Part shown: positions 1,638 to 62,750 of the stretch, in pieces
Numbering within the stretch: the first letter of the stretch is position 1
Layout: each line of letters begins with the position of its first letter
NCBI GenBank assembly: GCA_973851085.1
Contig: OZ316775.1
Coordinates: 12,710,001-12,774,000 of the forward strand
Direction: 5' to 3'
Length of the DNA: 64,000 bases
Source of the DNA: Ptychomitrium polyphyllum
Taxonomy: Eukaryota
Program-made: the position numbers and the translations under genes
Notes under the pieces: generated by a model
Databases searched by the model: none
What the model saw: only the letters and a program-made list of their open reading frames with translations
What the model was told of the DNA's origin: nothing

Positions 1638-2065
1638 TATTGAAGAAATGCAACAAAGCTAGTACAACAAGCAAGAAGAGAGAGAGCAAAGTTGCAACAA
1701 GAGAAGTGTGGAGCAAGATGACTCGCACTTCCAAAACCCCTTTACTTATACTTGAGAGTCATCCACCAAAATGTGCCACTTGGCGGCCATGCATTTGCCT
1801 CTACTATATGAGTGACATGTGGCGGCTAACCCTAACCCTAGCCGCCGTACCCGCCACCCTAACCCTAACGGCCGCCCTAACCCTAATGGCCGCCCTAACC
1901 TTAGCCGCCATACAAAACCCTTGTTGCCTTTTCTTAACCCTAGCCTCCATATCCCCTATAGCCTCTTTCCTCACACTCCTTTGACCATTAGCAACATATC
2001 ATGCTCTAAGTCTACACAAGGATACTTCAACTAGGATTACTTTATATGTTTCACACTTTGCAACA
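1638..2065 (-). repeat. LTR L1 (428 bp), 3' LTR of E1
   Basis: TATTG...CAACA on +. PPT on the right, TSD GTAAT on the left. Confidence 0.95.
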
Positions 2066-2083
2066 CTCCCACTTTGCTACTGG

Positions 2084-5000: not shown

Positions 5001-6124
5001 CTCAATGACTTCACAATACATCCATTCACATTGAAATGAGCCACAAACCCTCCCATCACAAGTTTGCTCACCGAAAGGAGGTTGGACTTCATCTTTGGCA
5101 CATGCAGCACGTCCTTGAAGGTGATCCTCTTGGTCTTGCCTCCCACAACAACCTCCACCACAATGGAACCCATTCCAATGGCCTCCACCACGCCATTGTC
5201 ACCCATGAGCACACTAGTGGCTGCAATTGCCTCATAAGTATGGAATGAGCACTTGTAAGGAGTCATGTGCTTTGTGGCGCCCGAATCAACTATCCACTTG
5301 GATAGGGCCGCCATAGGCGCCCCCTCGCTTGCCATGAAGGCACAATCACCACCTCCAAGGTGGTCCATCACATGGTTGGCATCCTCCCTCTCTCCTTTCT
5401 TGGCCTTGAAGCAATTTCGAGCAAAATGACCTGGTTTTCCACACACAAAGCACGTTCGAAGATTTGGACGTTGATTAGAATAGGTGGCCTTGCCTTGCCT
5501 CGAGAAGAGGGCGGAGTCCTCACTTGAATTCGCCTTCTCCTTCCTCTTGGTGTCCTCGTGGCTCAATCTCGCCGTCACATAGTCCATGGTGAGGTCCTTG
5601 ATGGGAATGGACTCCAAGGCCACTATGAGATAGCTATAGGACTCCGGCAAGCTCATGAGCAATGTAATCACAACATCCGACTCCTCCAATGGCTTGTCCA
5701 CAATGGCAACTTGCCTTGCAAGGGCCTTCAACTTGTTAACATGCGCCATGAGGTCGTGGCCTTCTTCCATCTTGCAGTTCAAGAGCTTCCTCTTTGTGAA
5801 GATGATGTTGGAGAGGTTCTTGCTCTCATAGATGTTGCAAAGCGTCTTCCACGCTTCTGCTGGTCCAGTGCAAGAGATGATATGGGCGAAGTTGGCATCA
5901 TCAAGGTTGGTGGCAAGGATGCCAAAAGCCTTCTTCTCACGACGCTAGAACTCCTTCCTCTCCTTTGCATCTGCCGACAATGGTGGAGCAACCTCACTCT
6001 CATCTATGATGTCCCAAAGGTCCATAGAAGCCAACGAGAGCTCCATCCTAACCTTCCATTGGTAGAAGTTATCACCATGAAACTTTTGAATGACCCTAAG
6101 ACCTTCACCTTCACTCGAAGCCAT
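2084..6124 (-). pseudogene. Copy E1 gag-pol, full length with two nonsense codons (Q60stop at 5945-5947, W844stop at 3593-3595)
   Basis: Colinear with the 1346-aa ORF. The ORF track is split into 3593-5782 and 2084-3583. Confidence 0.92.
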
Positions 6125-6560
6125 GGCTTAAGAAGAGTGGTAACAAAACAAACCTTCAAACGAACTATTTCCTTGACTCCTATGCTTCTCACAAGTCTTC
6201 ACAACTATGAGTCCCAAGAAAAACCTTTCAACTCACTATGTCCACTCAATGAGCACACATATCAATGATCTCACAAGATAACAACACCAAGCACAACAAA
6301 ATGGTGTTAGGAAGCTTGAATCCAACAAAGACACTATCAAGGTCTTATCACCACTCAAAACAACTCACTATCCAAGGAGTTTCAACAACCACAACCCTAC
6401 TAGAGCTCAAGAAACATCAAACCAAGCACCTACATGTACAAAACTTCAAAGTTAGGCGTTTCTGACTATATCTTCAAAAACTATGAAGTGATCTTGCTCC
6501 ACACAAGAACAACAACTACAAAACACTTCAAGCTACTTCAAAAGGCACAACTAAGAGTGA

Positions 6561-6574
6561 GTGGGCCCATAACC
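6561..6574 (-). other. Primer-binding site GGTTATGGGCCCAC (half tRNA-iMet type); also at 8501, 9840, 14542, 22763, 24576, 29516, 37825, 42627, 47430
   Basis: Directly abuts the LTR end. The + strand GTGGGCCCATAACC equals the anticodon-arm sequence of plant initiator tRNA-Met. Confidence 0.9.
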
Positions 6575-7002
6575 TATTGAAGAAATGCAACAAAGCTAGT
6601 ACAACAAGCAAGAAGAGAGAGAGCAAAGTTGCAACAAGAGAAGTGTGGAGCAAGATGACTCGCACTTCCAAAACCCCTTTACTTATACTTGAGAGTCATC
6701 CACCAAAATGTGCCACTTGGCGGCCATGCATTTGCCTCTACTATATGAGTGACATGTGGCGGCTAACCCTAACCCTAGCCGCCGTAGCCGCCACCCTAAC
6801 CCTAACGGCCGCCCTAACCCTAATGGCCGCCCTAACCTTAGCCGCCATACAAAACCCTTGTTGCCTTTTCTTAACCCTAGCCTCCATATCCCCTATAGCC
6901 TCTTTCCTCACACTCCTTTGACCATTAGCAACATATCATGCTCTAAGTCTACACAAGGATACTTCAACTAGGATTACTTTATATGTTTCACACTTTGCAA
7001 CA
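6575..7002 (-). repeat. LTR L2 (428 bp), 5' LTR of E1; outer end joined to PR-region sequence of E2 (AGTTT...)
   Basis: PBS on the left; internal sequence instead of PPT on the right. Confidence 0.95.
6756..6847 (-). promoter_or_regulatory. U3 minisatellite (~18-bp units) with six TTAGGG hexamers and four AGCCGCC GCC boxes (shown for L2; similar in the other young LTRs)
   Basis: CCCTAACCCTAA dimers alternate with (A/G)GCCGCC. A candidate TATA (TATAAGTA, - strand) lies at 6680-6687. Function is inferred. Confidence 0.6.
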
Positions 7003-18279: not shown

Positions 18280-18287
18280 GCTACTGG

Positions 18288-31156: not shown

Positions 31157-31789
31157 TGTGCACAAGTACACTCAATCACCTCAAAACGGTCCTTTTAGGC
31201 CCAAATGTGCACTTATTTACTCCTATCAACGCCAAATGAGCCCTACCAACGCTCAATCAACCTCAAATGCTTCCTCACCACTCAATTGGGCTTGAAATGT
31301 GCACTTTTGCACCCTCTCCACTCAAATCGGCCCTCAAGTGCTTCCAACAATGGACAAATGCCCTATACACGCACTAACACTCAAATGTGCACTTATGCAC
31401 CTCAAACACACCAATCAGCCTTCAATGGCTTCACATACGCATCCAAAGCACTCAAGCTCTCAAAGCACAAGCTTCAAATACTAACAAGCATCAATTGTGC
31501 ACAAACGCACCTCACATGAAACTCAAATACTAAATGCAAAGCTTACAAGCCTATAACGATACTTCCACTGCTCTAAACTTCTCCAAACGCCTCCAAATGG
31601 GAACTTGTGCACCACCAAAACTTGTAACGCCTCCAAGCACCTCCAAATCAGCCCTTGTGGCTCTCCAAATGCTCAAAGGCACCAAAATTGCACAAATGCA
31701 CATGCAACAAAAGACTCTCAAGATGCTCTACCAAACACTAACGCAATCAAATCTCAACTCACACAACAAGCATGTGTGGGTCCATAACC

Positions 31790-32021
31790 TAATGAAATAC
31801 ACAAAGTATGCGAACAATGCTTGGAATGAGAGTAATCATCCCATTCCTTGCTCTGCCCTTTATTCTCTTCAAACCACATCAGTCTTTCAATCAATATGGG
31901 ATAAATCTTCGACCCACTCCAAACAATATGGGTTCATTCTAATGTTCTTCATTTCAACTAATAACCACAATCCCATACTAACTCTAAGACTACGAGCAAT
32001 CTAATGCTCTATTCTCTAACA
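31790..32021 (-). repeat. Putative 5' LTR of family B (232 bp, TGTTA...CATTA), with PBS GGTTATGGACCCAC at 31776-31789
   Basis: Bounded by a half-tRNA PBS (1 mismatch) and a sharp switch to family A sequence. Only one copy is in the window. Confidence 0.7.
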
Positions 32022-32126
32022 GTGAGTTCATTGATATGTGTGCTCATTGAGTGGACATAGAAAGTTGAAAGGTTTTTCCTGGGACTCATAGTTGTGAAGA
32101 CTTGTGAGAAGCATAGGAGTCAAGGA
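32022..32126 (+). mobile_element. Family A 5' leader fragment in + orientation (target of the family B insertion)
   Basis: Reverse complement of the leader seen at ~6170-6275. Confidence 0.85.
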
Positions 32127-32226
32127 NNNNNNNNNNNNNNNNNNNNNNNNNNNNNNNNNNNNNNNNNNNNNNNNNNNNNNNNNNNNNNNNNNNNNNNNNN
32201 NNNNNNNNNNNNNNNNNNNNNNNNNN
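32127..32226. other. Assembly gap (100 N, true size unknown)
   Basis: Run of N. Confidence 1.
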
Positions 32227-32789
32227 GCATCACTCACAAACAAAGCACATTGACATCCAACATCACTTCATAAGAGAGAAGATTGAAGATGGAGTGATAG
32301 ATATGAGGTATTGTGCAACAGAGGGCAATGCTTGCTGATTTGTTGACAAAAGCACTGGTAAGGGATAGACACCAGTTGTTGACGAGGTCAATTGGATTAA
32401 AGGCCTTTGACCAGTAGAAGTTATTGTTGCAAAGTGTGAAACCATATAAAGTAATCCTAGTTGAAGTATCCTTGTGTAGACTTAGAGCATGATATGTTGC
32501 TAATGGTCAAAGGAGTGTGAGGAAAGAGGCTATAGGGGATATGGAGGCTAGGGTTAAGAAAAGGCAACAAGGGTTTTGTATGGCGGCTAGGGTTAGGGCG
32601 GCCATTAGGATTAGGGCGGCCGTTAGGGTTAGGGTGGCGGCTACGGTGGCTAGGGTTAGGGTGGATGACTCTGAAGTATAAGTAAGGGGTTTTAGAAGTG
32701 GGAGTCAGCTTGCTCCACACTTCTATTGTTGCAACATTGCTCGCTCTCTTCTTGCTTGTTGTACTAGCCTTTGCTGCATTTCTTCAATA
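32227..32789 (+). mobile_element. Inverted family A 3' end: RNase H tail plus internally deleted LTR L10 (32425-32789); error-rich
   Basis: TGTTGC...TCAATA on +. Scattered single-base indels next to the gap. Confidence 0.75.
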
Positions 32790-32899
32790 CTTTAATCCAA
32801 TTGACCTCGTCAACAACCGGTGTCTATCTCTTACCAATGCTTTTGTTAACAAATCAGCAAGCATGCCCTCTGTTGCACAATACCTCATATCTATCACTC

Positions 32900-33329
32900 T
32901 ATTGAAGAAATACAACAAAGCTAGTACAACAAGCAAGAAGAGAGAGAGCAAAGTTGCAACAAGAGAACTGTGGAGCAAGATGACTCCCACTTCCAAAACC
33001 CCTTTACTTATACTTGAGAGTCATCCACCAAAATGTGCCACCTGGAGGCCATGCATTTGCTTCCACTATATGAGTGACATGTGGCGGCTAACTCTAACCC
33101 TTGCCGCCGTAGCCGCCACCCTAACCCTAACGGCCGCCCTAACCCTAATGGCCGCCCTAACCTTACAAAACCCATACAAAACCCTTGTTGCCTTTTCTTA
33201 ACCCTAGCCTCCATATCCCCTATAGCCTCTTTCCTCACACTCCTTTGACCATTAGCAACATATCATGCTCTAAGTCTACACAAGGATACTTCAACTAGGA
33301 TTACTTTATATGTTTCACACTTTGCAACA
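32900..33329 (-). repeat. LTR L11, 3' LTR of E7
   Basis: PPT on the right; RNase H fragment 32790-32899 on the left. Confidence 0.88.
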
Positions 33330-33347
33330 CTCCCACTTTGCTACTGG

Positions 33348-36300
33348 TCAAAGGGCCTTTAGTCCAATTGACCTCGTCAACAACTGGTGTCTATCTCTTA
33401 CCAATGCTTTTGTCAACAAATCAGCAAGCATACCCTCTGTTGCACAATACCTCATATCTATCACTCCATCTTCAATCTTCTCTCTTATGAAGTGATGTTG
33501 GATGTCAATGTGCTTTGTTCGTGAGTGATGCTTGGGATTCTTGGCAAAGGCAAGACATCCTTGATTGTCACACATGATGGGCGTTGCACCCAGTTGTACA
33601 AGTCCAATGTCCTCCAAGAGTTGCCTCAGCCACATTGCTTCCATTGCACCATGACTTGCCGCCATGTACTCCGCCTCCATGGTTGACCTTGCAATTGTGG
33701 GTTGCCTCTTGCAGTTCCAAGAGATGGCTCCCACTCCAACAAAGAACACATACCCCGTTGTGGAGCGCCTATCATTTGCATCTCCAGCCCAATCCGTGTC
33801 ACAAAATCCCTGCAACTCAATGTTATCACCTCCCAGACACAACACAAAGTCCAAGGTGCCCTTCAAGTACCTCATGATCCTCTTGATGGTTGCCCAGTGC
33901 ATGGGGCCGGCCTTGGACATGTGTTGGCTCACAACACTCACCGAAAACGCAAGATCAAACCTTGTGCCCACCATGGCATACATGAGGCACCCCACTCCGC
34001 CCTTGTATGGAACGCCTTGCATTTCGCCCTCCACTTGAGCATACTCCTCATCACTTAGCTTCATCAACCTCAAGTTTGCCTCCAAAGGCGTTCCCACTGG
34101 CTTGCAGTCTTCCATGTTGAATCGCTTCAACACCTCTTCCATGTACTTCTTCTGGCTCATGGTGATGGTCCTCTTTGCACGATCCCTCACAAATTCCACT
34201 CCAAGACAATAGTGTAACTCGCCCAAATCACTCATCTCAAACTCCTGCTCTAATTTGGCCTTCAACCACTCTAGCTTCTCCGAAAGGTTGGCCAACATGA
34301 TCAAGTCATCCACATAGAGAATCACAATCAACAAGAATTCCATGGTCTGCATCACATACAAGGAATGATCCGCCTCACTTCTCACAAACCCTTCCTTCCT
34401 AAAGAATGCATCAATGCGTTGGTACCATGCCCTTGGCGATTGCTTAAGCCCGTACAAGGCCTTCTTCAACTTGCAAACAAGGTGTTCCAAGCCTTCATGT
34501 ACAAACCCTGGAGGTTGCTCCATGTAGATGTCTTCTTCCAACTCTCCATTTAGAAAGGCCGTCTTCACATCCATCTGGTGCACCTCCAAGTCCATTGCCG
34601 CAGCTATGGCCAAGATGGTCCTAATGGTGGTGAACTTGGCCACAGGTGCAAAGGTCTCATTGAAGTCCACACCAGCAACTTGTGAGTATCCTTTGGCAAC
34701 TAGCCTTGCCTTGTGCCTCACAATTGCACCCGAAGCATCCCTCTTGGTTCTAAACACCCACTTGCAACCTATGCAAGAACGATTTGGAGGAAGTTGAGTC
34801 AAGTGCCATGTGCCATTGTCCATCAGCGACTTGTACTCCTCTTCCATGGCCTTCTCCCAGTTCATTGCATCCGTGGACTTCAAGGCATCGCACATAGTTA
34901 AAGGATCAACGAGGAGGGCAACATTGGCATGTTCTGCACTCACTTTTGGAAAGATGTGGTTCTTCCACCATTCACCAAGTGGCCTCCTCTCCCTCATGGG
35001 ATACCTCCTTCCACTCATTGCAGGCCTCTCTTCTTGTAATGCATTCCCTTCTCCTTCACTTAGAGGATTATCCTCCTCACTTGGATGAAGATGCTCACCA
35101 TCATCTTGTGAGGCTCCTCTGCTGGTCCTAAGGGTGGAAGTCGCCTTGCTCTCCCCCTCCATTGTTCCTTCACCTCCATCCACATCTCCACCTTCTTCCT
35201 TGGTTGTTGAGGATGTGTCCACAATCACACCATTACTCCCACTTGGACACATCTCCAAGTGCTCACAAGCACTCTTGTGCTCCAAGAACTCAACATCACG
35301 ACTCTTGATGATCTTCTTGCTCTCCACACACATCAACCTATATGCTTTGCTGCCCTCACAATAACCAAAGAACACACACTTTGTACCCTTTGCATCAAGC
35401 TTGGACCTCATGCAATCTGGAACCTTTGCATATGCAAGGCATCCGAAGGTCCTCATGTGTGAAACACAAGGCTTCTTACCACTCCAAGCTTCTTCAGGGG
35501 TCATGGATGCAAGGGCACTTGTGGGGCACCTATTTCTTGTGTACACCGCATTCACCACCGCTTCCGCCCACAACTCATGTCCAAGATGTTGGGCATGAAG
35601 CATGCTCCTCGCCATCTCCACAATGGTGCGATTTGCCCTCTCAGCAACTCCATTTTGTTGTGGAGTGTATGGAGTGGAGGTTTGCCTTGCAATGCCTTCA
35701 CTCCTCAACAAGTCATCAAAACATTTGGATAAGAACTCACCACCATTATCCGAACGCAACACCTTGATCTTGGACTCACATTGCTTCTCCACGAGCGCCT
35801 TGAACTCCTTGAATCTTGCGAAGCATTCGCTCTTGGCCTTGAGGATGAACACCCATACTTTCCTCGAATAATCATCAATGAAGGTGAGGAAGTACCTTGC
35901 TCCCCCGATGGATGGAGTCCTCATAGGCCCGCACACGTCGGAATGCACAATCTCCAACAATTTGCTTGCACGACTTGCCACTCCACTTGGAAACGACGCC
36001 CTTTGCTGCTTGCCTTGGATGCAAGCCTCACAAGCAAGTTCCTTGGCCTTGTGGCATGTTGTACCGATATCCAAGCCGCTTACCATGCCTTGGAGCTCCT
36101 TCATGGCCTTCACATTGAGGTGCCCAAGGCGCCCATGCCATATGCCAAACTTGTCTTGGTCTTCAATGAACTCAGCAAAGGCCGCCACCTCCACTCCATT
36201 CACCTTCTTACACTTGATGAAGTACAAGTTGCCATCCCTCAACCCCGTGGCAACCACATCTCCACTCAATGACTTCACAATACATCCATTCACATTGAAA

Positions 36301-37388
36301 TGAGCCACAAACCCTCCCATCACAAGTTTGCTCACCGAAAGGAGGTTGGACTTCATCTTTGGCACATGCAGCACGTCCTTGAAGGTGATCCTCTTGGTCT
36401 TGCCTCCCACAACAACCTCCACCACAATGGAACCCATTCCAATGGCCTCCACCACGCCATTGTCACCCATGAGCACACTAGTGGCTGCAATTGCCTCATA
36501 AGTATGGAATGAGCACTTGTAAGGAGTCATGTGCTTTGTGGCGCCCGAATCAACTATCCACTTGGATAGGGCCGCCATAGGCGCCCCCTCGCTTGCCATG
36601 AAGGCACAATCACCACCTCCAAGGTGGTCCATCACATGGTTGGCATCCTCCCTCTCTCCTTTCTTGGCCTTGAAGCAATTTCGAGCAAAATGACCTGGTT
36701 TTCCACACACAAAGCACGTTCGAAGATTTGGACGTTGATTAGAATAGGTGGCCTTGCCTTGCCTCGAGAAGAGGGCGGAGTCCTCACTTGAATTCGCCTT
36801 CTCCTTCCTCTTGGTGTCCTCGTGGCTCAATCTCGCCGTCACATAGTCCATGGTGAGGTCCTTGATGGGAATGGACTCCAAGGCCACTATGAGATAGCTA
36901 TAGGACTCCGGCAAGCTCATGAGCAATGTAATCACAACATCCGACTCCTCCAATGGCTTGTCCACAATGGCAACTTGCCTTGCAAGGGCCTTCAACTTGT
37001 TAACATGCGCCATGAGGTCGTGGCCTTCTTCCATCTTGCAGTTCAAGAGCTTCCTCTTTGTGAAGATGATGTTGGAGAGGTTCTTGCTCTCATAGATGTT
37101 GCAAAGCGTCTTCCACGCTTCTGCCGGTCCAGTGCAAGAGATGATATGGGCGAAGTTGGCATCATCAAGGTTGGTGGCAAGGATGCCAAAAGCCTTCTTC
37201 TCACGACGCTGGAACTCCTTCCTCTCCTTTGCATCTGCCGACAATGGTGGAGCAACCTCACTCTCATCTATGATGTCCCAAAGGTCCATAGAAGCCAACG
37301 AGAGCTCCATCCTAACCTTCCATTGGTAGAAGTTATCACCATGAAACTTTTGAATGACCCTAAGACCTTCACCTTCACTCGAAGCCAT
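33348..37388 (-). CDS. Copia gag-pol polyprotein, 1346 aa (E7)
   Basis: Uninterrupted ORF with all catalytic motifs (DTDWAG variant). Confidence 0.96.
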   Translation of the reverse strand: MASSEGEGLRVIQKFHGDNFYQWKVRMELSLASMDLWDIIDESEVAPPLSADAKERKEFQRREKKAFGILATNLDDANFAHIISCTGPAEAWKTLCNIYESKNLSNIIFTKRKLLNCKMEEGHDLMAHVNKLKALARQVAIVDKPLEESDVVITLLMSLPESYSYLIVALESIPIKDLTMDYVTARLSHEDTKRKEKANSSEDSALFSRQGKATYSNQRPNLRTCFVCGKPGHFARNCFKAKKGEREDANHVMDHLGGGDCAFMASEGAPMAALSKWIVDSGATKHMTPYKCSFHTYEAIAATSVLMGDNGVVEAIGMGSIVVEVVVGGKTKRITFKDVLHVPKMKSNLLSVSKLVMGGFVAHFNVNGCIVKSLSGDVVATGLRDGNLYFIKCKKVNGVEVAAFAEFIEDQDKFGIWHGRLGHLNVKAMKELQGMVSGLDIGTTCHKAKELACEACIQGKQQRASFPSGVASRASKLLEIVHSDVCGPMRTPSIGGARYFLTFIDDYSRKVWVFILKAKSECFARFKEFKALVEKQCESKIKVLRSDNGGEFLSKCFDDLLRSEGIARQTSTPYTPQQNGVAERANRTIVEMARSMLHAQHLGHELWAEAVVNAVYTRNRCPTSALASMTPEEAWSGKKPCVSHMRTFGCLAYAKVPDCMRSKLDAKGTKCVFFGYCEGSKAYRLMCVESKKIIKSRDVEFLEHKSACEHLEMCPSGSNGVIVDTSSTTKEEGGDVDGGEGTMEGESKATSTLRTSRGASQDDGEHLHPSEEDNPLSEGEGNALQEERPAMSGRRYPMRERRPLGEWWKNHIFPKVSAEHANVALLVDPLTMCDALKSTDAMNWEKAMEEEYKSLMDNGTWHLTQLPPNRSCIGCKWVFRTKRDASGAIVRHKARLVAKGYSQVAGVDFNETFAPVAKFTTIRTILAIAAAMDLEVHQMDVKTAFLNGELEEDIYMEQPPGFVHEGLEHLVCKLKKALYGLKQSPRAWYQRIDAFFRKEGFVRSEADHSLYVMQTMEFLLIVILYVDDLIMLANLSEKLEWLKAKLEQEFEMSDLGELHYCLGVEFVRDRAKRTITMSQKKYMEEVLKRFNMEDCKPVGTPLEANLRLMKLSDEEYAQVEGEMQGVPYKGGVGCLMYAMVGTRFDLAFSVSVVSQHMSKAGPMHWATIKRIMRYLKGTLDFVLCLGGDNIELQGFCDTDWAGDANDRRSTTGYVFFVGVGAISWNCKRQPTIARSTMEAEYMAASHGAMEAMWLRQLLEDIGLVQLGATPIMCDNQGCLAFAKNPKHHSRTKHIDIQHHFIREKIEDGVIDMRYCATEGMLADLLTKALVRDRHQLLTRSIGLKAL

Positions 37389-37838
37389 GGCTTAAGAAGA
37401 GAGGTAACAAAACAAACCTTCAAACGAACTATTTCCTTGACTCCTATGCTTCTCACAAGTCTTCACAACTATGAGTCCCAAGAAAAACCTTTCAACTCAC
37501 TATGTCCACTCAATGAGCACACATATCAATGATCTCACAAGATAACAACACCAAGCACAAGAAAATGGTGTTAGGAAGCTTGAATCCAACAAAGACACTA
37601 TCAAGGTCTTATCACCACTCAAAGCAACTCACTATCCAAGGAGTTTCAACAACCACAACCCTACTAGAGCTTAAGAAACATCAAACCAAGCACCTATATG
37701 TGCAAAACTTCAAAGTTAGGCGTTTCTAACTATATCTTCAATAACTATGAAGTGATCTTGCTCCACACAAGAACAACAACTACAAAACACTTCAAGCTAC
37801 TTCAAAAGGCACAACTAAGAGTGAGTGGGCCCATAACC

Positions 37839-38266
37839 TATTGAAGAAATGCAACAAAGCTAGTACAACAAGCAAGAAGAGAGAGAGCAAAGTTGCAACA
37901 AGAGAAGTGTGGAGCAAGATGACTCGCACTTCCAAAACCCCTTTACTTATACTTGAGAGTCATCCACCAAAATGTGCCACTTGGCGGCCATGCATTTGCC
38001 TCTACTATATGAGTGACATGTGGCGGCTAACTCTAACCCTAGCCGCCGTACCCGCCACCCTAACCCTACCGGCCGCCCTAACCCTAATGGCCGCCCTAAC
38101 CTTAGCCGCCATACAAAACCCTTGTTGCCTTTTCTTAACCCTAGCCTCCATATCCCCTATAGCCTCTTTCCTCACACTCCTTTGACCATTAGCAACATAT
38201 CATGCTCTAAGTCTACACAAGGATACTTCAACTAGGATTACTTTATATGTTTCACACTTTGCAACA
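37839..38266 (-). repeat. LTR L12 (428 bp), joined to RNase H sequence at ATCTT
   Basis: PBS on the left; no PPT on the right. Confidence 0.95.
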
Positions 38267-41200
38267 ATCTTCAATCTTCTCTCTTATGAAGTGATGTTGG
38301 ATGTCAATGTGCTTTGTTCGTGAGTGATGCTTGGGATTCTTGGCAAAGGCAAGACATCCCTGATTGTCACACATGATGGGCGTTGCACCCAGTTGTACAA
38401 GTCCAATGTTGTCCAAGAGTTGCCTCAGCCACATTGCTTCCATTGCACCATGACTTGCCGCCATGTACTCCGCCTCCATGGTTGACCTTGCAATTGTGGG
38501 TTGCCTCTTGCAGTTCCAAGAGATGGCTCCCACTCCAACAAAGAACACATACCCCGTTGTGGAGCGCCTATCATTTGCATATCCAGCCCAATCCGCGTCG
38601 CAAAATCCCTGCAACTCAATGTTATCATCTCCCAGACACAACACAAAGTCCAAGGTGCCCTTCAAGTACCTCATGATCTTCTTGATGGTTGCCCAGTGCA
38701 TGGGGCCGGCCTTGGACATGTGTTGGCTCACAACACTCACCGAAAACGCAAGATCAAACCTTGTGCCCACCATGGCATACATGAGGCACCCCACTCCGCC
38801 CTTGTATGGAACGCCTTGCATTTCGCCCTCCACTTGAGCATACTCCTCATCACTTAGCTTCATCAACCTCAAGTTTGCCTCCAAAGGCGTTTCCACTGGC
38901 TTGCAGTCTTCCATGTTGAATCGCTTCAACACCTCTTCCATGTACTTCTTCTGGCTCATGGTGATGGTCCTCTTTGCACGATCCCTCACAAATTCCACTC
39001 CAAGACAATAGTGTAACTCGCCCAAATCACTCATCTCAAACTCCTGCTCTAATTTGGCCTTCAACCACTCTAGCTTCTCCGAAAGGTTGGCCAACATGAT
39101 CAAGTCATCCACATAGAGAATCACAATCAACAAGAATTCCATGGTCTGCATCACATACAAGGAATGATCCGCCTCACTTCTCACAAACCCTTCCTTCCTA
39201 AAGAATGCATCAATGCGTTGGTACCATGCCCTTGGCGATTGCTTAAGCCCGTACAAGGCCTTCTTCAACTTGCAAACAAGGTGTTCCAAGCCTTCATGTA
39301 CAAACCCTGGAGGTTGCTCCATGTAGATGTCTTCTTCCAACTCTCCATTTAGAAAGGCCGTCTTCACATCCATCTGGTGCACCTCCAAGTCCATTGCCGC
39401 AGCTATGGCCAAGATGGTCCTAATGGTGGTGAACTTGGCCACAGGTGCAAAGGTCTCATTGAAGTCCACACCAGCAACTTGTGAGTATCCTTTGGCAACT
39501 AGCCTTGCCTTGTGCCTCACAATTGCACCCGAAGCATCCCTCTTGGTTCTAAACACCCACTTGCAACCTATGCAAGAACGATTTGGAGGAAGTTGAGTCA
39601 AGTGCCATGTGCCATTGTCCATGAGCGACTTGTACTCCTCTTCCATGGCCTTCTCCCAGTTCATTGCATCCGTGGACTTCAAGGCATCGCACATAGTTAA
39701 AGGATCAACGAGGAGGGCAACATTGGCATGTTCTGCACTCACTTTTGGAAAGATGTGGTTCTTCCACCATTCACCAAGTGGCCTCCTCTCCCTCATGGGA
39801 TACCTCCTTCCACTCATTGCAGGCCTCTCTTCTTGTAATGCATCCCCTTCTCCTTCACTTAGAGGATTATCCTCCTCACTTGGATGAAGATGCTCACCAT
39901 CATCTTGTGAGGCTCCTCTGCTGGTCTTAAGGGTGGAAGTCGCCTTGCTCTCCCCCTCCATTGTTCCTTCACCTCCATCCACATCTCCACCTTCTTCCTT
40001 GGTTGTTGTGGAGGATGTGTCCACAATCACACCATTACTCCCACTTGGACACATCCCCAAGTGCTCACAAGCACTCTTGTGCTCCAAGAACTCAACATCA
40101 CCACTCTTGATGATCTTCTTGCTCTCCACACACATCAACCTATATGCTTTGCTGCCCTCACAGTAACCCAAGAACACACACTTTGTACCCTTTGCATCAA
40201 GCTTGGACCTCATGCAATCTTGAACCTTTGCATATGCAAGGCATCCGAAGGTCCTCATGTGTGAAACACAAGGCTTCTTACCACTCCAAGCTTCTTCGGG
40301 GGTCATGGATGCAAGGGCACTTGTGGGGCACCTATTTCTTGTGTACACCGCATTCACCACCGCTTCCGCCCACAACTCATGTCCAAGATGTTGGGCATGA
40401 AGCATGCTCCTCGCCATCTCCACAATGGTGCGATTTGCCCTCTCAGCAACTCCATTTTGTTGTGGAGTGTATGGAGTGGAGGTTTGCCTTGCAATGCCTT
40501 CACTCCTCAACAAGTCATCAAAACATTTGGATAAGAACTCACCACCATTATCCGAACGCAACACCTTGATCTTGGACTCACATTGCTTCTCCACGAGCGC
40601 CTTGAACTCCTTGAATCTTGCGAAGCATTCGCTCTTGGCCTTGAGGATGAACACCCATACTTTCCTCGAATAATCATCAATGAAGGTGAGGAAGTACCTT
40701 GCTCCCCCGATGGATGGAGTCCTCATAGGCCCGCACACGTCGGAATGCACAATCTCCAACAATTTGCTTGCACGACTTGCCACTCCACTTGGAAACGACG
40801 CCCTTTGCTGCTTGCCTTGGATGCAAGCCTCACAAGCAAGTTCCTTGGCCTTGTGGCATGTTGTACCGATATCCAAGCCGCTTACCATGCCTTGGAGCTC
40901 CTTCATGGCCTTCACATTGAGGTGCCCAAGGCGCCCATGCCATATGCCAAACTTGTCTTGGTCTTCAATGAACTCAGCAAAGGCCGCCACCTCCACTCCA
41001 TTCACCTTCTTACACTTGATGAAGTACAAGTTGCCATCCCTCAACCCCGTGGCAACCACATCTCCACTCAATGACTTCACAATACATCCATTCACATTGA
41101 AATGAGCCACAAACCCTCCCATCACAAGTTTGCTCACCGAAAGGAGGTTGGACTTCATCTTTGGCACATGCAGCACGTCCTTGAAGGTGATCCTCTTGGT

Positions 41201-42190
41201 CTTGCCTCCCACAACAACCTCCACCACAATGGAACCCATTCCAATGGCCTCCACCACGCCATTGTCACCCATGAGCACACTAGTGGCTGCAATTGCCTCA
41301 TAAGTATGGAATGAGCACTTGTAAGGAGTCATGTGCTTTGTGGCGCCCGAATCAACTATCCACTTGGATAGGGCCGCCATAGGCGCCCCCTCGCTTGCCA
41401 TGAAGGCACAATCACCACCTCCAAGGTGGTCCATCACATGGTTGGCATCCTCCCTCTCTCCTTTCTTGGCCTTGAAGCAATTTCGAGCAAAATGACCTGG
41501 TTTTCCACACACAAAGCACGTTCGAAGATTTGGACGTTGATTAGAATAGGTGGCCTTGCCTTGCCTCGAGAAGAGGGCGGAGTCCTCACTTGAATTCGCC
41601 TTCTCCTTCCTCTTGGTGTCCTCGTGGCTCAATCTCGCCGTCACATAGTCCATGGTGAGGTCCTTGATGGGAATGGACTCCAAGGCCACTATGAGATAGC
41701 TATAGGACTCCGGCAAGCTCATGAGCAATGTAATCACAACATCCGACTCCTCCAATGGCTTGTCCACAATGGCAACTTGCCTTGCAAGGGCCTTCAACTT
41801 GTTAACATGCGCCATGAGGTCGTGGCCTTCTTCCATCTTGCAGTTCAAGAGCTTCCTCTTTGTGAAGATGATGTTGGAGAGGTTCTTGCTCTCATAGATG
41901 TTGCAAAGCGTCTTCCACGCTTCTGCCGGTCCAGTGCAAGAGATGATATGGGCGAAGTTGGCATCATCAAGGTTGGTGGCAAGGATGCCAAAAGCCTTCT
42001 TCTCACGACGCTGGAACTCCTTCCTCTCCTTTGCATCTGCCGACAATGGTGGAGCAACCTCACTCTCATCTATGATGTCCCAAAGGTCCATAGAAGCCAA
42101 CGAGAGCTCCATCCTAACCTTCCATTGGTAGAAGTTATCACCATGAAACTTTTGAATGACCCTAAGACCTTCACCTTCACTCGAAGCCAT
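38252..42190 (-). CDS. Copia gag-pol, 1312 aa (E8), RNase H C-terminus replaced by LTR-derived CCKV
   Basis: Open ORF that lacks the final ADLLTKAL motif and the PPT; probably defective. Confidence 0.85.
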   Translation of the reverse strand: MASSEGEGLRVIQKFHGDNFYQWKVRMELSLASMDLWDIIDESEVAPPLSADAKERKEFQRREKKAFGILATNLDDANFAHIISCTGPAEAWKTLCNIYESKNLSNIIFTKRKLLNCKMEEGHDLMAHVNKLKALARQVAIVDKPLEESDVVITLLMSLPESYSYLIVALESIPIKDLTMDYVTARLSHEDTKRKEKANSSEDSALFSRQGKATYSNQRPNLRTCFVCGKPGHFARNCFKAKKGEREDANHVMDHLGGGDCAFMASEGAPMAALSKWIVDSGATKHMTPYKCSFHTYEAIAATSVLMGDNGVVEAIGMGSIVVEVVVGGKTKRITFKDVLHVPKMKSNLLSVSKLVMGGFVAHFNVNGCIVKSLSGDVVATGLRDGNLYFIKCKKVNGVEVAAFAEFIEDQDKFGIWHGRLGHLNVKAMKELQGMVSGLDIGTTCHKAKELACEACIQGKQQRASFPSGVASRASKLLEIVHSDVCGPMRTPSIGGARYFLTFIDDYSRKVWVFILKAKSECFARFKEFKALVEKQCESKIKVLRSDNGGEFLSKCFDDLLRSEGIARQTSTPYTPQQNGVAERANRTIVEMARSMLHAQHLGHELWAEAVVNAVYTRNRCPTSALASMTPEEAWSGKKPCVSHMRTFGCLAYAKVQDCMRSKLDAKGTKCVFLGYCEGSKAYRLMCVESKKIIKSGDVEFLEHKSACEHLGMCPSGSNGVIVDTSSTTTKEEGGDVDGGEGTMEGESKATSTLKTSRGASQDDGEHLHPSEEDNPLSEGEGDALQEERPAMSGRRYPMRERRPLGEWWKNHIFPKVSAEHANVALLVDPLTMCDALKSTDAMNWEKAMEEEYKSLMDNGTWHLTQLPPNRSCIGCKWVFRTKRDASGAIVRHKARLVAKGYSQVAGVDFNETFAPVAKFTTIRTILAIAAAMDLEVHQMDVKTAFLNGELEEDIYMEQPPGFVHEGLEHLVCKLKKALYGLKQSPRAWYQRIDAFFRKEGFVRSEADHSLYVMQTMEFLLIVILYVDDLIMLANLSEKLEWLKAKLEQEFEMSDLGELHYCLGVEFVRDRAKRTITMSQKKYMEEVLKRFNMEDCKPVETPLEANLRLMKLSDEEYAQVEGEMQGVPYKGGVGCLMYAMVGTRFDLAFSVSVVSQHMSKAGPMHWATIKKIMRYLKGTLDFVLCLGDDNIELQGFCDADWAGYANDRRSTTGYVFFVGVGAISWNCKRQPTIARSTMEAEYMAASHGAMEAMWLRQLLDNIGLVQLGATPIMCDNQGCLAFAKNPKHHSRTKHIDIQHHFIREKIEDCCKV

Positions 42191-42640
42191 GGCTTAAGAA
42201 GAGAGGTAACAAAACAAACCTTCAAACGAACTATTTCCTTGACTCCTATGCTTCTCACAAGTCTTCACAACTATGAGTCCCAAGAAAAACCTTTCAACTC
42301 ACTATGTCCACTCAATGAGCACACATATCAATGATCTCACAAGATAACAACACCAAGCACAAGAAAATGGTGTTAGGAAGCTTGAATCCAACAAAGACAC
42401 TATCAAGGTCTTATCACCACTCAAAGCAACTCACTATCCAAGGAGTTTCAACAACCACAACCCTACTAGAGCTTAAGAAACATCAAACCAAGCACCTATA
42501 TGTGCAAAACTTCAAAGTTAGGCGTTTCTAACTATATCTTCAATAACTATGAAGTGATCTTGCTCCACACAAGAACAACAACTACAAAACACTTCAAGCT
42601 ACTTCAAAAGGCACAACTAAGAGTGAGTGGGCCCATAACC

Positions 42641-43068
42641 TATTGAAGAAATGCAACAAAGCTAGTACAACAAGCAAGAAGAGAGAGAGCAAAGTTGCAA
42701 CAAGAGAAGTGTGGAGCAAGATGACTCGCACTTCCAAAACCCCTTTACTTATACTTGAGAGTCATCCACCAAAATGTGCCACTTGGCGGCCATGCATTTG
42801 CCTCTACTATATGAGTGACATGTGGCGGCTAACTCTAACCCTAGCCGCCGTACCCGCCACCCTAACCCTACCGGCCGCCCTAACCCTAATGGCCGCCCTA
42901 ACCTTAGCCGCCATACAAAACCCTTGTTGCCTTTTCTTAACCCTAGCCTCCATATCCCCTATAGCCTCTTTCCTCACACTCCTTTGACCATTAGCAACAT
43001 ATCATGCTCTAAGTCTACACAAGGATACTTCAACTAGGATTACTTTATATGTTTCACACTTTGCAACA
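42641..43068 (-). repeat. LTR L13 (428 bp), same sequence variants and same ATCTT junction as L12
   Basis: Private CCCTACCGGCC variant shared with L12. Confidence 0.95.
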
Positions 43069-46000
43069 ATCTTCAATCTTCTCTCTTATGAAGTGATGTT
43101 GGATGTCAATGTGCTTTGTTCGTGAGTGATGCTTGGGATTCTTGGCAAAGGCAAGACATCCCTGATTGTCACACATGATGGGCGTTGCACCCAGTTGTAC
43201 AAGTCCAATGTTGTCCAAGAGTTGCCTCAGCCACATTGCTTCCATTGCACCATGACTTGCCGCCATGTACTCCGCCTCCATGGTTGACCTTGCAATTGTG
43301 GGTTGCCTCTTGCAGTTCCAAGAGATGGCTCCCACTCCAACAAAGAACACATACCCCGTTGTGGAGCGCCTATCATTTGCATATCCAGCCCAATCCGCGT
43401 CGCAAAATCCCTGCAACTCAATGTTATCATCTCCCAGACACAACACAAAGTCCAAGGTGCCCTTCAAGTACCTCATGATCTTCTTGATGGTTGCCCAGTG
43501 CATGGGGCCGGCCTTGGACATGTGTTGGCTCACAACACTCACCGAAAACGCAAGATCAAACCTTGTGCCCACCATGGCATACATGAGGCACCCCACTCCG
43601 CCCTTGTATGGAACGCCTTGCATTTCGCCCTCCACTTGAGCATACTCCTCATCACTTAGCTTCATCAACCTCAAGTTTGCCTCCAAAGGCGTTTCCACTG
43701 GCTTGCAGTCTTCCATGTTGAATCGCTTCAACACCTCTTCCATGTACTTCTTCTGGCTCATGGTGATGGTCCTCTTTGCACGATCCCTCACAAATTCCAC
43801 TCCAAGACAATAGTGTAACTCGCCCAAATCACTCATCTCAAACTCCTGCTCTAATTTGGCCTTCAACCACTCTAGCTTCTCCGAAAGGTTGGCCAACATG
43901 ATCAAGTCATCCACATAGAGAATCACAATCAACAAGAATTCCATGGTCTGCATCACATACAAGGAATGATCCGCCTCACTTCTCACAAACCCTTCCTTCC
44001 TAAAGAATGCATCAATGCGTTGGTACCATGCCCTTGGCGATTGCTTAAGCCCGTACAAGGCCTTCTTCAACTTGCAAACAAGGTGTTCCAAGCCTTCATG
44101 TACAAACCCTGGAGGTTGCTCCATGTAGATGTCTTCTTCCAACTCTCCATTTAGAAAGGCCGTCTTCACATCCATCTGGTGCACCTCCAAGTCCATTGCC
44201 GCAGCTATGGCCAAGATGGTCCTAATGGTGGTGAACTTGGCCACAGGTGCAAAGGTCTCATTGAAGTCCACACCAGCAACTTGTGAGTATCCTTTGGCAA
44301 CTAGCCTTGCCTTGTGCCTCACAATTGCACCCGAAGCATCCCTCTTGCTTCTAAACACCCACTTGCAACCTATGCAAGAACGATTTGGAGGAAGTTGAGT
44401 CAAGTGCCATGTGCCATTGTCCATCAGCGACTTGTACTCCTCTTCCATGGCCTTCTCCCAGTTCATTGCATCCGTGGACTTCAAGGCATCGCACATAGTT
44501 AAAGGATCAACGAGGAGGGCAACATTGGCATGTTCTGCACTCACTTTTGGAAAGATGTGGTTCTTCCACCATTCACCAAGTGGCCTCCTCTCCCTCATGG
44601 GATACCTCCTTCCACTCATTGCAGGCCTCTCTTCTTGTAATGCATCCCCTTCTCCTTCACTTAGAGGATTATCCTCCTCACTTGGATGAAGATGCTCACC
44701 ATCATCTTGTGAGGCTCCTCTGCTGGTCTTAAGGGTGGAAGTCGCCTTGCTCTCCCCCTCCATTGTTCCTTCACCTCCATCCACATCTCCACCTTCTTCC
44801 TTGGTTGTTGTGGAGGATGTGTCCACAATCACACCATTACTCCCACTTGGACACATCCCCAAGTGCTCACAAGCACTCTTGTGCTCCAAGAACTCAACAT
44901 CACCACTCTTGATGATCTTCTTGCTCTCCACACACATCAACCTATATGCTTTGCTGCCCTCACAGTAACCCAAGAACACACACTTTGTACCCTTTGCATC
45001 AAGCTTGGACCTCATGCAATCTTGAACCTTTGCATATGCAAGGCATCCGAAGGTCCTCATGTGTGAAACACAAAGGCTTCTTACCACTCCAAGCTTCTTC
45101 GGGGGTCATGGATGCAAGGGCACTTGTGGGGCACCTATTTCTTGTGTACACCGCATTCACCACCGCTTCCGCCCACAACTCATGTCCAAGATGTTGGGCA
45201 TGAAGCATGCTCCTCGCCATCTCCACAATGGTGCGATTTGCCCTCTCAGCAACTCCATTTTGTTGTGGAGTGTATGGAGTGGAGGTTTGCCTTGCAATGC
45301 CTTCACTCCTCAACAAGTCATCAAAACATTTGGATAAGAACTCACCACCATTATCCGAACGCAACACCTTGATCTTGGACTCACATTGCTTCTCCACAAG
45401 CGCCTTGAACTCCTTGAATCTTGCAAAGCATTCGCTCTTGGCCTTGAGGATGAACACCCATACTTTCCTCAAATAATCATCAATGAAGGTGAGGAAGTAC
45501 CTTGCTCCCCCGATGGATGGAGTCCTCATAGGCCCGCCCACGTCGGAATGCGCAATCTCCAACAATTTGCTTGCACGACTTGCCACTCCACTTGGAAACG
45601 ACGCCCTTTGTTGCTTGCCTTGGATGCAAGCCTCACAAGCAAGTTCCTTGGCCTTGTGGCATGTTGTACCGAGATCCAAGCCGCTTACCATGCCTTGGAG
45701 CTCCTTCATGGCCTTCACATTGAGGTGCCCAAGGCGCCCATGCCATATGCCAAACTTGTCTTGGTCTTCAATGAACTCAGCAAAGGCCGCCACCTCCACT
45801 TCATTCACCTTCTTACACTTGATGAAGTACAAGTTGCCATCCCTCAACCCCGTGGCAACCACATCTCCACTCAATGACTTCACAATACATCCATTCACAT
45901 TGAAATGAGCCACAAACCCTCCCATCACAAGTTTGCTCACCGAAAGGAGGTTGGACTTCATCTTTGGCACATGCAGCACGTCCTTGAAGGTGATCCTCTT

Positions 46001-46993
46001 GGTCTTGCCTCCCACAACAACCTCCACCACAATGGAACCCATTCCAATGGCCTCCACCACGCCATTGTCACCCATGAGCACACTAGTGGCTGCAATTGCC
46101 TCATAAGTATGGAATGAGCACTTGTAAGGAGTCATGTGCTTTGTGGCGCCCGAATCAACTATCCACTTGGACAAGGCCGCCATAGGCGCCCCCTCGCTTG
46201 CCATGAAGGCACAATCACCACCTCCAAGGTGGTCCATCACATGGTTGGCATCCTCCCTCTCTCCTTTCTTGGCCTTGAAGCAATTTCGAGCAAAATGACC
46301 TGGTTTTCCACACACAAAGCGCATTCGAAGATTTGGACGTTGATTAGAATAGGTGGCCTTGCCTTGCCTCGAGAAGAGGGCGGAGTCCTCACTTGAATTC
46401 GCCTTCTCCTTCCTCTTGGTGTCCTCGTGGCTCAATCTCGCCGTCACATAGTCCATGGTGAGGTCCTTGATGGGAATGGACTCCAAGGCCACTATGAGAT
46501 AGCTATAGGACTCCGGCAAGCTCATGAGCAATGTAATCACAACATCCGACTCGTCCAATGGCTTGTCCACAATGGCAACTTGCCTTGCAAGGGCCTTCAA
46601 CTTGTTCACATGCGCCATGAGGTCGTGGCCTTCTTCCATCTTGCAGTTCAAGAGCTTCCTCTTTGTGAAGATGATGTTGGAGAGGTTCTTGCTCTCATAG
46701 ATGTTGCAAAGCGTCTTCCACGCTTCTGCCGGTCCAGTGCAAGAGATGATATGGGCGAAGTTGGCATCATTAAGGTTGGTGGCAAGGATGCCAAAAGCCT
46801 TCTTCTCACGACGCTGGAACTCCTTCCTCTCCTTTGCATCTGCCGACAATGGTGGAGCAACCTCACTCTCATCTATGATGTCCCAAAGGTCCATAGAAGC
46901 CAACGAGAGCTCCATCCTAACCTTCCATTGGTAGAAGTAATCACCATGAAACTTTTGAATGACCCTAAGACCTTCACCTTCACTCGAAGCCAT
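43069..46993 (-). pseudogene. Copy E9 gag-pol, 3'-truncated, 1-bp frameshift at ~45072-45074
   Basis: ORFs 44999-46993 and 43054-45087. The extra A may be a sequencing error. Confidence 0.88.
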
Positions 46994-47443
46994 GGCTTAA
47001 GAAGAGAGGTAACAAAACAAACCTTCAAACGAACTATTTCCTTGACTCCTATACTTCTCACAAGTCTTCACAACTATGAGTCCCAAGAAAAACCTTTCAA
47101 CTCACTATGTCCACTCAATGAGCACACATATCAATGAACTCACAAGACAACAACACCAAGCACAACAAAATGGTGTTAGGAAGCTTGAATCCAACAAAGA
47201 CACTATCAAGGTCTTATCACCACTCAAAACAACTCACTATCCAAGGAGTTTCAACAACCACAACCCTACTAGAGCTCAAGAAACATCAAACCAAGCACCT
47301 ACATGTGCAAAACTTCAAAGTTAGGCGTTTCTAATTCTATCTTCAATAACTATGAAGTGATCTTGCTCCACACAAGAACAACAACTACAAAACACTTCAA
47401 GCTACTTCAAAAGGCACAACTAAGTGTGAGTGGGCCCATAACC

Positions 47444-47871
47444 TATTGAAGAAATGCAACAAAGCTAGTACAGCAAGCAAGAAGAGAGAGAGCAAAGTTG
47501 CAACAAGAGAAGTGTGGAGCAAGATGACTCCCACTTCCAAAACCCCTTTACTTATACTTGAGAGTCATCCACCAAAATGTGCCACTTGGCGGCCATGCAT
47601 TTGCCTCCACTATATGAGTGACATGTGGCGGCTAACTCTAACCCTAGCCGCCGTAGCCGCCACCCTAACCCTAACGGCCGCCCTAACCCTAATGGCCGCC
47701 CTAACCCTAGCCGCCATACAAAACCCTTGTTGCCTTTTCTTAACCCTAGCCTCCATATCCCCTATAGCCTCTTTCCTCACACTCCTTTGACCATTAGCAA
47801 CATATCATGCTCTAAGTCTACACAAGGATACTTCAACTAGGATTACTTTATATGTTTCACACTTTGCAACA
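47444..47871 (-). repeat. LTR L14 (428 bp), 5' LTR of E9, inserted into the + strand copy F at GGTAT
   Basis: Orientation switches exactly at the LTR terminus. Confidence 0.95.
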
Positions 47872-49527
47872 GGTATCCCATGAGGGAGAGGAGGCCAGTT
47901 GGTGAATGGTGGAAGAACCACATCTTTCCAAAAGTGAGTGCAGAACATGCCAATGTTGCCCTCCTTGTCGATCCTTTAACTATGTGTGATGCCTTGAAGT
48001 CCACGGATGCAATGAACTGGGAGAAGGCCATGGAAGAGGAGTACAAGTCGCTGATGGACAATGGCACATGGCACTTGACTCAACTTCCTCCAAATCGTTC
48101 TTGCATAGGTTGCAAGTGGGTGTTTAGAACCAAGAGGGATGCTTCGGGTGCAATTGTGAGGCACAAGGCAAGGCTAGTTGCCAAAGGATACTCACAAGTT
48201 GCTGGTGTGGACTTCAATGAGACCTTTGCACCTGTGGCCAAGTTCACCACCATTAGGACCATCTTGGCCATAGCTGCGGCAATGGACTTGGAGGTGCACC
48301 AGATGGATGTGAAGACGGCCTTTCTAAATGGAGAGTTGGAAGAAGACATCTACATGGAGCAACCTCCAGGGTTTGTACATGAAGGCTTGGAACACCTTGT
48401 TTGCAAGTTGAAGAAGGCCTTGTACGGGCTTAAGCAATCGCCAAGGGCATGGTACCAACGCATTGATGCATTCTTTAGGAAGGAAGGGTTTGTGAGAAGT
48501 GAGGCGGATCATTCCTTGTATGTGATGCAGACCATGGAATTCTTGTTGATTGTGATTCTCTATGTGGATGACTTGATCATGTTGGCCAACCTTTCGGAGA
48601 AGCTAGAGTGGTTGAAGGCCAAATTAGAGCAGGAGTTTGAGATGAGTGATTTGGGCGAGTTACACTATTGTCTTGGAGTGGAATTTGTGAGGGATCTTGC
48701 AAAGAGGACCATCACCATGAGCCAGAAGAAGAACATCGAAGAGGTGTTGAAGCGATTCAACATGGAAGACTGCAAGCCAGTGGGAACGCCTTTGGCAAAC
48801 TTGAGGTTGATGAAGCTAAGTGATGAGGAGTATGCTCAAGTGGAGGGCGAAATGCAAGGCGTTCCATACAAGGGCGGAGTGGGGTGCCTCATGTATGCCA
48901 TGGTGGGCACAAGGTTTGATCTTGCGTTTTCGGTGAGTGTTGTGAGCCAACACATGTCCAAGGCCGGCCCCATGCACTGGACAACCATCAAGAAGATCAT
49001 GAGGTACTTGAAGGGCACCTTGGACTTTGTGTTGTGTCTGGGAGGTGATAACATTGAGTTGCAGGGATTTTGCGACGCGGATTAGGCTGGAGAGGCAAAT
49101 GATAGGCGCTCCACAACGGGGTATGTGTTCTTTGTTGGAATGGGAGCCATCTCTTGGAACTGCAAGAGGCAACCTGCAATTGCAAGGTCAACCATGGAGG
49201 CGGAGTACATGGCGGCAAGTCATGGTGCAATGGAAGCAATGTGGCTGAGGCAACTCTTGGAGGACATTGGACTTGTACAAGTGGGTGCAACGCCCATCAT
49301 ATGTGACAATCAAGGATGTCTTGCCTTTCCCAAGGATCCCAAGTATCACTTACGAACAAAGCACATCAACATTCAGCATCACTTCATAAGAGAGAAGATT
49401 GAAGATGGAGTGATAGGTATGAGGTATTGTGCAGTAGAAGGCATGCTTGCTAAATTGTTGACAGAAGCATTGGTAAATAGATAGGCACCAATTGTTGACA
49501 AGGTCAATTGGATTAAAGGTCGTTTGA
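47872..49527 (+). pseudogene. Copy F: RT-RNase H in + orientation with nonsense codons (e.g. 49083-49085)
   Basis: ORFs 47880-49085 and 49125-49484; YVDD present. Confidence 0.92.
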
Positions 49528-49545
49528 CCAATAGCAAAGTATGAG

Positions 49546-49889
49546 TGTTGTAAAGGGTGAAATATATGAAGTCATCCTAGTTGAAGTTTCCTTGTGTTGG
49601 ACTCGAGCTTGATAGGTTGTTAATGGTCAAAGGGATGTTAGGAAGGAGGTTATAGAAGATATGGAGACTAGGGTTAAGAAAAGGCAACAAGGATTTTGTA
49701 TGGCGGCTAGGATTAGGCCGGCCGGTTGGAGGCAAATGCATGGCTACCAAATGGCACACTTTGGTGGATGACTCCTAAGTATAAATAAAGGGGTTTTGGA
49801 AGTGGGAGACATCTTGCTCCACACATCTCTTTTTGCAACTTTGCTCTCTTTTCTTGCTTGTTGTATTATTTTGTTGCATTTCTTCAATA
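49546..49889 (+). repeat. LTR L15 (344 bp), diverged 3' LTR of F and outer boundary of the array
   Basis: TGTTG...CAATA; many substitutions; lacks most of the TTAGGG/GCC block; right flank TTACT. Confidence 0.9.
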
Positions 49890-62700: not shown

Positions 62701-62750
62701 TGCAGAGCAATGCAGAGCAGAGCAGAGCAGTGCAGTGCAATGCAGTGCAA
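62701..62750. repeat. Pentamer repeat (GCAGA/GCAGT/GCAAT)n
   Basis: About ten degenerate units in a GC-rich putative promoter/leader. Confidence 0.8.

Follow-up and report, generated by a model that had tools for sequence, protein, structure and literature searches.

The closest described systems, cited here from excerpts of their sources, come from plants and Drosophila. In maize centromere 10, the CR1 and CR2 retrotransposons include chimeric elements with mismatched target site duplications (TSDs), recombination between nested elements of the same family, read from subtype alleles, and adjacent duplications, one of 22.7 kb (PMC4806543). These are Ty3/gypsy elements, and intrastrand recombination or repair with 5–11 nt of microhomology is given as the process. 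In the maize repeats CRM1TR and CRM4TR, tandem units start in an LTR and end within the element, and these form large arrays of short LTR-UTR monomers; nested insertions have been proposed as their origin, and gene conversion or unequal exchange as the means of their expansion (PMC3648361). Tandem LTR retrotransposons that share an LTR, head to tail on one strand, are common in plants; the study concerned set complex or nested cases aside (PMC11899658). In Drosophila, duplicated nests of transposable elements are common, a nest being copied in tandem once it exists; the families inside a nest are mostly different, and the excerpt leaves the mechanism open (PMC1794594). Tandems also arise in Drosophila by double insertion, with the target site kept inside the junction (PMC5932611).

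The locus described here lies in a window of 64,000 nucleotides (the whole stretch of DNA that was analysed). It consists of three Ty1/copia copies of one family, termed E9, E8 and E7, which follow one another head to tail, all on the minus strand. Three properties are observed: the junction between copies is repeated, the middle copy (E8) is a mosaic specific to its two neighbours, and a remainder of the E9 element is present past E7. The locus resembles maize centromere 10 in its mismatched-TSD chimera and in nested recombination read from alleles, but the exchange here would lie in 296 bp of identity, at in-register positions, and would add one whole guest-host unit. Its unit starts in an LTR and ends within the element as in CRM1TR/CRM4TR, but is 4.8 kb long with nearly the whole coding region, and there is one extra copy with the putative parents adjoining. 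Shared-LTR tandems are also present in the window: T1–T4, in its left part, form a four-mer in which complete internal regions alternate with shared LTRs. The unit boundary of E8, in contrast, is an insertion junction in RNase H, with the exchange placed in the internal region. Unlike the double-insertion tandems, the junction here does not keep a target site within it. A moss case with a whole guest-host unit duplicated beside both parents was not found among the open-access papers listed and the excerpts read. The E8 locus adds a clear new case to a process that is already known; recombination in same-family nests has been described in maize and Drosophila.

Positions 1–49889 of the window consist almost entirely of one young Ty1/copia family, with an element of 5367 bp and LTRs of 428 bp that have the ends TG..TA. 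Identity between most family copies in the window is ~99%. A single copy of another family, 65% related, is also found in this region. A Pfam search of E7 gives Retrotran_gag_2 (aa positions 28–198), Pol_BBD (278–360), rve (480–577) and RVT_2 (859–1104), i.e. the copia order gag, protease, integrase, reverse transcriptase. The structure is also of this type: there are two LTRs, a PBS-like motif after the 5′ LTRs, a purine-rich stretch preceding the 3′ LTR, and clean 5-bp TSDs in sister copies (GGAAT at G2, ATTAC at A+G1). The motif downstream of the 5′ LTR is GGTTATGGGCCC, which may be a primer binding site of the half-molecule tRNA-Met type. This type is listed for Osser, Bryco and part of Gymco-II in the excerpt of PMC6317226. 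The closest relatives show 65%–81% identity and have no lineage name; a cluster look-up of eight relatives yielded none either.

Unique DNA to the right of the cluster contains a RIN2-like E3 ligase gene. A 47 amino acid exon of this gene has its best named match in Ceratodon purpureus (98%), and shows 94% identity with Physcomitrium patens, Marchantia and Sphagnum; a more extended comparison, with the Ceratodon protein, takes in eight exon pieces. Because the best named match is to Ceratodon, the host is likely a moss, as judged from this one gene. The cluster appears likely to be Bryco-like and is probably centromeric. Bryco (RLC5-like) clusters of moss centromeres are, according to excerpts of three sources (10.1101/2023.05.19.541548, PMC11869191, 10.64898/2026.09.17.752431), dense assemblies of a single young copia family, nested and on both strands; at the sequence level the cluster here is alike in these respects. 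The family is far larger than the window: contig depth in read run X2 is 2554–3834, compared to 31–48 for the rarest joints, although depth is not equal to copy number. The features of the nest are listed in Table 1.

Table 1. Positions in the window of the E9–E8–E7 nest and of associated features.
Feature	Position	Strand	Remarks
E9, putative host element	43069..47871	-	5′ LTR 47444-47871; gag-PR-IN-RT; RNase H truncated at element position 4799
E8, chimeric middle copy	38267..43068	-	LTR 42641-43068; RNase H truncated at the same position as in E9 (4799)
E7, putative guest, full length (5367 bp)	32900..38266	-	single 1347-aa stop-to-stop frame, copia domain order
Junction 1, E7 5′ LTR start / E8 RNase H	38262..38271	.	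ATCTT at 38267-38271
Junction 2, E8 LTR start / E9 RNase H	43064..43073	.	ATCTT at 43069-43073
Switch interval	40299..40594	.	296 bp without a difference between E7, E8 and E9
Exact repeat of 4049 bp, copy 1	35497..39545	.	across junction 1
Exact repeat of 4049 bp, copy 2	40299..44347	.	across junction 2
Discordant patch of E8	39546..39623	.	
Extra base in A run of E9	45072..45074	.	absent from E7 and E8
E7 3′ LTR, 430 bp	32900..33329	-	
Host remainder	32790..32899	-	element positions 4801-4910
P, 3′ end of an opposite-strand family copy	32227..32789	+	interrupts host remainder
Assembly gap	32127..32226		100 N
H2, older opposite-strand family copy	47872..49889	+	element positions 3262-5367; holds inserted E9
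G1, family copy	1638..7002		

E9 and E8 both extend from the LTR to element position 4799, and a new LTR follows directly. The two junctions, at 38266/38267 and 43068/43069, read alike (LTR start, then ATCTT TCAATCTTCTC) with a period of 4802 bp; the claim of an earlier note on this DNA, that two LTRs join RNase H at ATCTT with this period, is thus borne out by identical sequence at both places. Neither E9 nor E8 displays the normal boundary between polypurine tract and LTR, as both end before the purine tract. The stop-to-stop frame of E8 is 1313 aa, and the reading frame of E9 is shifted by its one extra base. There is no sign of a hot spot at position 4799 among the six other nesting sites of the window (element positions ~729, 1339, 1831, 1945, 3261 and 4910) or among four further sites from read run X3 (885, 1639, 2695 and 4308; four among the 15 joints listed). 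The junction 27-mer gave 0 matches in metagenome_contigs.

Each copy of the family that lies in the window is a mosaic of haplotypes. Mosaicism alone is therefore not diagnostic, and a test specific to the neighbours of E8 is needed. A three-way alignment of E7, E8 and E9 has 4803 columns, 55 of them variable. E8 agrees with E7 at 34 columns and with E9 at 20 (17 SNVs and one 3-bp indel, i.e. 18 events), and stands alone at one. The two classes are not intermingled: at the first 32 variable sites (window positions 42904 to 40595) E8 equals E7 in 32/32, and from 40298 onward it equals E9 at 18 out of 21 events. The best split has a Fisher p of 4.5e-12, and 0 of 300 shuffles were as extreme (52 informative events). 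The main switch is thus placed in a segment where E7 and E9 are identical, in agreement with the interval between ~40298 and ~40595 that had been proposed. The peptide markers named in the earlier note show the same division. SGDVEF, KKIMRY, LGDDN, AGYAND and LLDNIG, taken as marks of an E9-type 3′ half, are present in both E8 and E9 (5/5) and absent from E7; PLEES, LDIGT and RTCF, taken as E7-type, are present in both E8 and E7 (3/3) and absent from E9.

The resemblance is to these two neighbours and not to the family in general. Positions 1–2474 of E8, including the LTR and 5′ part, show 0 differences to E7, compared to 13–32 differences to the eight other copies that cover the span partly or wholly (the next closest is G1, with 13). 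Positions 2771–4799 differ from E9 by 2 SNVs in 2029 bases, and from the six other full-span copies by 10–21 (next closest T3, with 10); of the copies that cover this span in part, T4 has 1 difference in 436 bases and H2 has 30 in 1535 bases. Private alleles, where private is relative to the 4–8 other window copies available per site and not to the whole family, behave in the same manner. E7-private alleles occur in E8 at 5/5 sites before the switch and 0/2 after, and E9-private alleles at 0/8 before and 5/5 after. Among window copies E9 has 13 private SNVs, and E8 has 0 in 4799 positions. Dating by a count of mutations gives no more than an upper bound: 0 differences in 2474 positions correspond to <0.12% divergence at 95%.

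Three differences between E8 and E9 depart from the simple pattern, all within 750 bp of the switch: the A run at 45072–45074, and positions 39623 and 39546. The E8 allele at 39546 matches E7, G2 and H2. That at 39623 is found in neither E7 nor E9 and matches G1. Two of the three differences are thus alleles that segregate in the family. A few discordant sites near 39545–39625 had been reported previously, and both are present, but the third was missed. The three discordances are compatible with a patchy conversion tract that involved a third donor, and also with correction of reads by paralogous sequences.

E7 is not a clean guest. It lacks a TSD: the minus-strand flanks are AAGAT and GAGTG, and one host base is lost, as the host sequence ends at element position 4799 and restarts past E7 at 4801 (32899–32790), without the expected 5-bp duplication. 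In addition, the distal part of its 3′ LTR is foreign. The 3′ and 5′ LTRs differ at 14 of 428 aligned sites and by a 2-bp insertion, all at LTR position 158 or beyond, compared to 0–3 differences in the other LTR pairs (of the same element or of a tandem). Both properties had been overlooked in the earlier note. They imply that at least one more event occurred; likely the E7 3′ LTR recombined with another LTR inserted ~6 bp downstream, or cDNA was joined by homology at one end.

The reading that we prefer, with a probability of about 0.62, is that E8 is a 4802-bp mosaic which arose by out-of-register exchange or template switch between the nested E7 and its host E9, inside the 296-bp shared stretch. 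The host sequence breaks off at 4799 and continues at 4801 on the far side of E7, so that E7 most likely inserted into E9. The steps may have been as follows. E7 would have inserted into the RNase H region of E9, giving two 99%-identical direct copies 4.8 kb apart, which could misalign between sister chromatids or homologues. An unequal exchange, or repair of a break with a template switch, would then yield the order E9, a copy with E7-type 5′ and E9-type 3′ sequence, E7, and the host remainder, and would double the junction. The three discordant sites beside the switch would go back to a patchy conversion tract or a third donor, and a separate event would have swapped the distal E7 3′ LTR and removed the TSD.

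This is in large part what the earlier note had proposed (insertion of E7 into E9, followed by a crossover that makes E8). The return of the host at 4801 supports it, as does the polarity of E8: the middle copy has a guest 5′ part and a host 3′ part, with a duplicated junction, as an out-of-register exchange predicts. The guest flanked by a TSD that such a scheme calls for is not found at E7. The sequence does not separate a reciprocal crossover from one-sided break repair or from recombination with cDNA or a circle, all of which would lead to the same product. Two other routes were considered and rejected. A deletion out of a shared-LTR tandem does not fit as the source of the junction, in that the host resumes at 4801 past E7, and transposition of E8 and E7 as one composite unit would need the same site twice.

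The most serious rival to an exchange is that E8 is a false duplication, made by a chimeric read (e.g. from template switching in an amplified library), by haplotypes joined out of register, or by contig extension near the gap. The array begins 670 bp from the 100-N gap, and a small number of reads could underlie the structure as a whole, 15.6 kb from the gap. The exactness of the 4049-bp repeat fits a very recent event, but fits reused sequence equally well; like the nearness of the gap, it counts against an exchange. The clustering of the three discordances at the join is also what paralogue-guided read correction, or read ends, could produce. On the other side, the three sites that differ from E9 show that E8 is not a perfect in-silico copy, and a false overlap would be just 296 bp, whereas the true overlap measures several kb. 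With such repeats, overlap assemblers tend towards collapse and not towards expansion, which we count against an artefact. The nest is coherent across the gap, with plus-strand element positions 729–833 before it and 4736–5367 after it. The consensus also looks accurate, because only one frame-shifting 1-bp indel is found in 40,819 aligned bases (11 family segments). An artefact is, on these grounds, considered unlikely, yet it weighs more than any other rival.

Read data do not alter this balance. Four runs were listed, and the unique flank is covered in two, X2 (1.00) and X3 (0.98), which come from one sample and one study and may be the data that the assembly was built from. Because many of its joints sit at GATC, X3 is likely of the Hi-C type, and these joints were ignored. 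X2 and X3 on positions 37839–42640, and X2 on 33330–38266, give short contigs only, with no listed piece longer than 109 bases on the stretch, and no spanning reads are seen among them. The short-contig tables have no row with the ATCTT junction, the E9-private alleles or the E7 3′ junction. A 238-bp deletion that occurs three times in the assembly is missed equally, i.e. the tables are too insensitive to weigh on either side. At 38892 the residual depth in X2 for the allele shared by E8, E9 and T3 is 52, which is low for three copies; the matching row is absent from the second X2 table, so this value is left out of account.

An RNA or circle route appears improbable. Here reverse transcriptase would copy a read-through transcript of E9 and E7, with template switches to E7 and to a third RNA; recombination without integrase would then bring the cDNA, or else an excised 4.8-kb circle, back into the locus. 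The layout can be read as LTR-internal-LTR-internal-LTR with the LTR of E7 shared, and several template switches would account for the non-parental allele at 39623; integrase-independent tandems in yeast and circle routes are cited in the excerpt of PMC11899658. But the internal part of E8 ends before the polypurine tract, E8 has no novel substitution, and the cDNA would need to find its locus of origin among the many copies that the X2 depth suggests. A double insertion, in which an independent recombinant E8 entered E9 at ATCTT and E7 then entered E8 at the same position, is very improbable. The process is one that makes tandems in Drosophila, as noted above, and a second 3′ remainder could lie past the gap, outside the window. 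It would have to use the same base twice, whereas each of the ten other sites seen (six from the window, four from the 15 X3 joints listed) is a different one. E8 would also need an exact match to E7 on one side and 5/5 E9-private alleles on the other, and such a mosaic of neighbour-specific alleles speaks against two insertions at one position.

The wider claim of the earlier note, that nesting itself seeds tandem expansion, stands as an idea, which has been proposed before (excerpt of PMC3648361), but rests here on one extra copy. As one event in one assembly, the locus gives no rate. Four of the 12 family copies do not have a separate insertion junction, and besides the shared-LTR four-mer the window contains a composite that has a single TSD, as well as a chimeric LTR that lacks one. 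It is conceivable, though rather doubtful, that moss centromere-type copia clusters grow by recombination between self-nested copies and not only by fresh insertion; each same-strand self-insertion would then be a kilobase-scale direct repeat able to expand, and the window may represent the first extra unit with the parents intact, a starting step to a satellite-like array.

If the duplication is real, it is an unusually readable snapshot, with both parents, the 296-bp exchange interval and the patchy tract in view. The centromeres of Geum urbanum are described as shaped mainly by insertion and less by duplication (excerpt of 10.64898/2026.09.17.752431), and the locus described here bears on the route from transposon-type to satellite-type centromeres that is proposed in the same source. 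A real E8 would also mean that counting LTR junctions as insertions overcounts transposition in such clusters.

Minus-strand copies T1-T4 of the Ty1/copia family form a tandem of at least four head-to-tail units, with LTRs in common between units. Its insertion target belongs to a 65%-related copia family. The units differ among themselves, and a 238-bp internal deletion, with a 10-bp direct repeat at its borders, is common to T2, T3 and T4. Coordinates are collected in the table.

Features of the retrotransposon cluster and its right flank (positions in the window)
Feature	Position	Strand	TSD
T1-T4 tandem	1-29957	minus	
Shared LTR of T1-T4	24590-25017	minus	
Shared LTR of T1-T4	14556-14983	minus	
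Shared LTR of T1-T4	9854-10281	minus	
Target of the tandem (related copia copy)	29958-32022		
Composite of A and G1	1638-8942		ATTAC
G2	17860-23186		GGAAT
Family sequence around the assembly gap	32023-32789	plus	
E7 3′ end	32790-33329		
LTR repeat (example)	38049-38110		
RIN2/AMFR-like gene	52131-56054	minus	
203-aa frame	62399-63010	plus	
Pentanucleotide repeat	62700-62750		

Two further family copies are enclosed by a single target site duplication: A, truncated to element positions 1 through about 1945, and the full copy G1. The inner junction between them lacks a partner and displays a microhomology of 3 bp. This arrangement could have arisen by a deletion within a nest or within a tandem, or the composite could have transposed as a single unit; its LTR alleles do not discriminate among the three. 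G2 is a full-length copy with an uninterrupted reading frame of 1347 aa. Its LTRs, at 410 bp, are shorter by 18–20 bp, and the pair is mismatched at 2 of 410 sites.

Within the family LTR lies a short repeat of 18 bp whose CCCTAA hexamers are similar to a telomere repeat. About 2 kb beyond the cluster edge is a multi-exon gene for a RIN2/AMFR-like E3 ubiquitin ligase. Farther to the right, a stop-to-stop frame of 203 aa covers a pentanucleotide repeat; a Pfam search with this frame gave no match.

The 3′ end of E7, the full-length guest copy, has no target site duplication, and its LTR haplotype changes from LTR position 158 onward. These two properties suggest either that another insertion took place about 6 bp away and LTR-LTR recombination came after it, or that cDNA recombined at one end.

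Plus-strand family sequence flanks the 100-N assembly gap, with element positions 729–833 and 4736–5367 represented. These pieces are likely to be parts of one element. If so, at least some 3.9 kb would be concealed by the gap, and the entire left cluster would sit nested within the remainder of the host copy E9.
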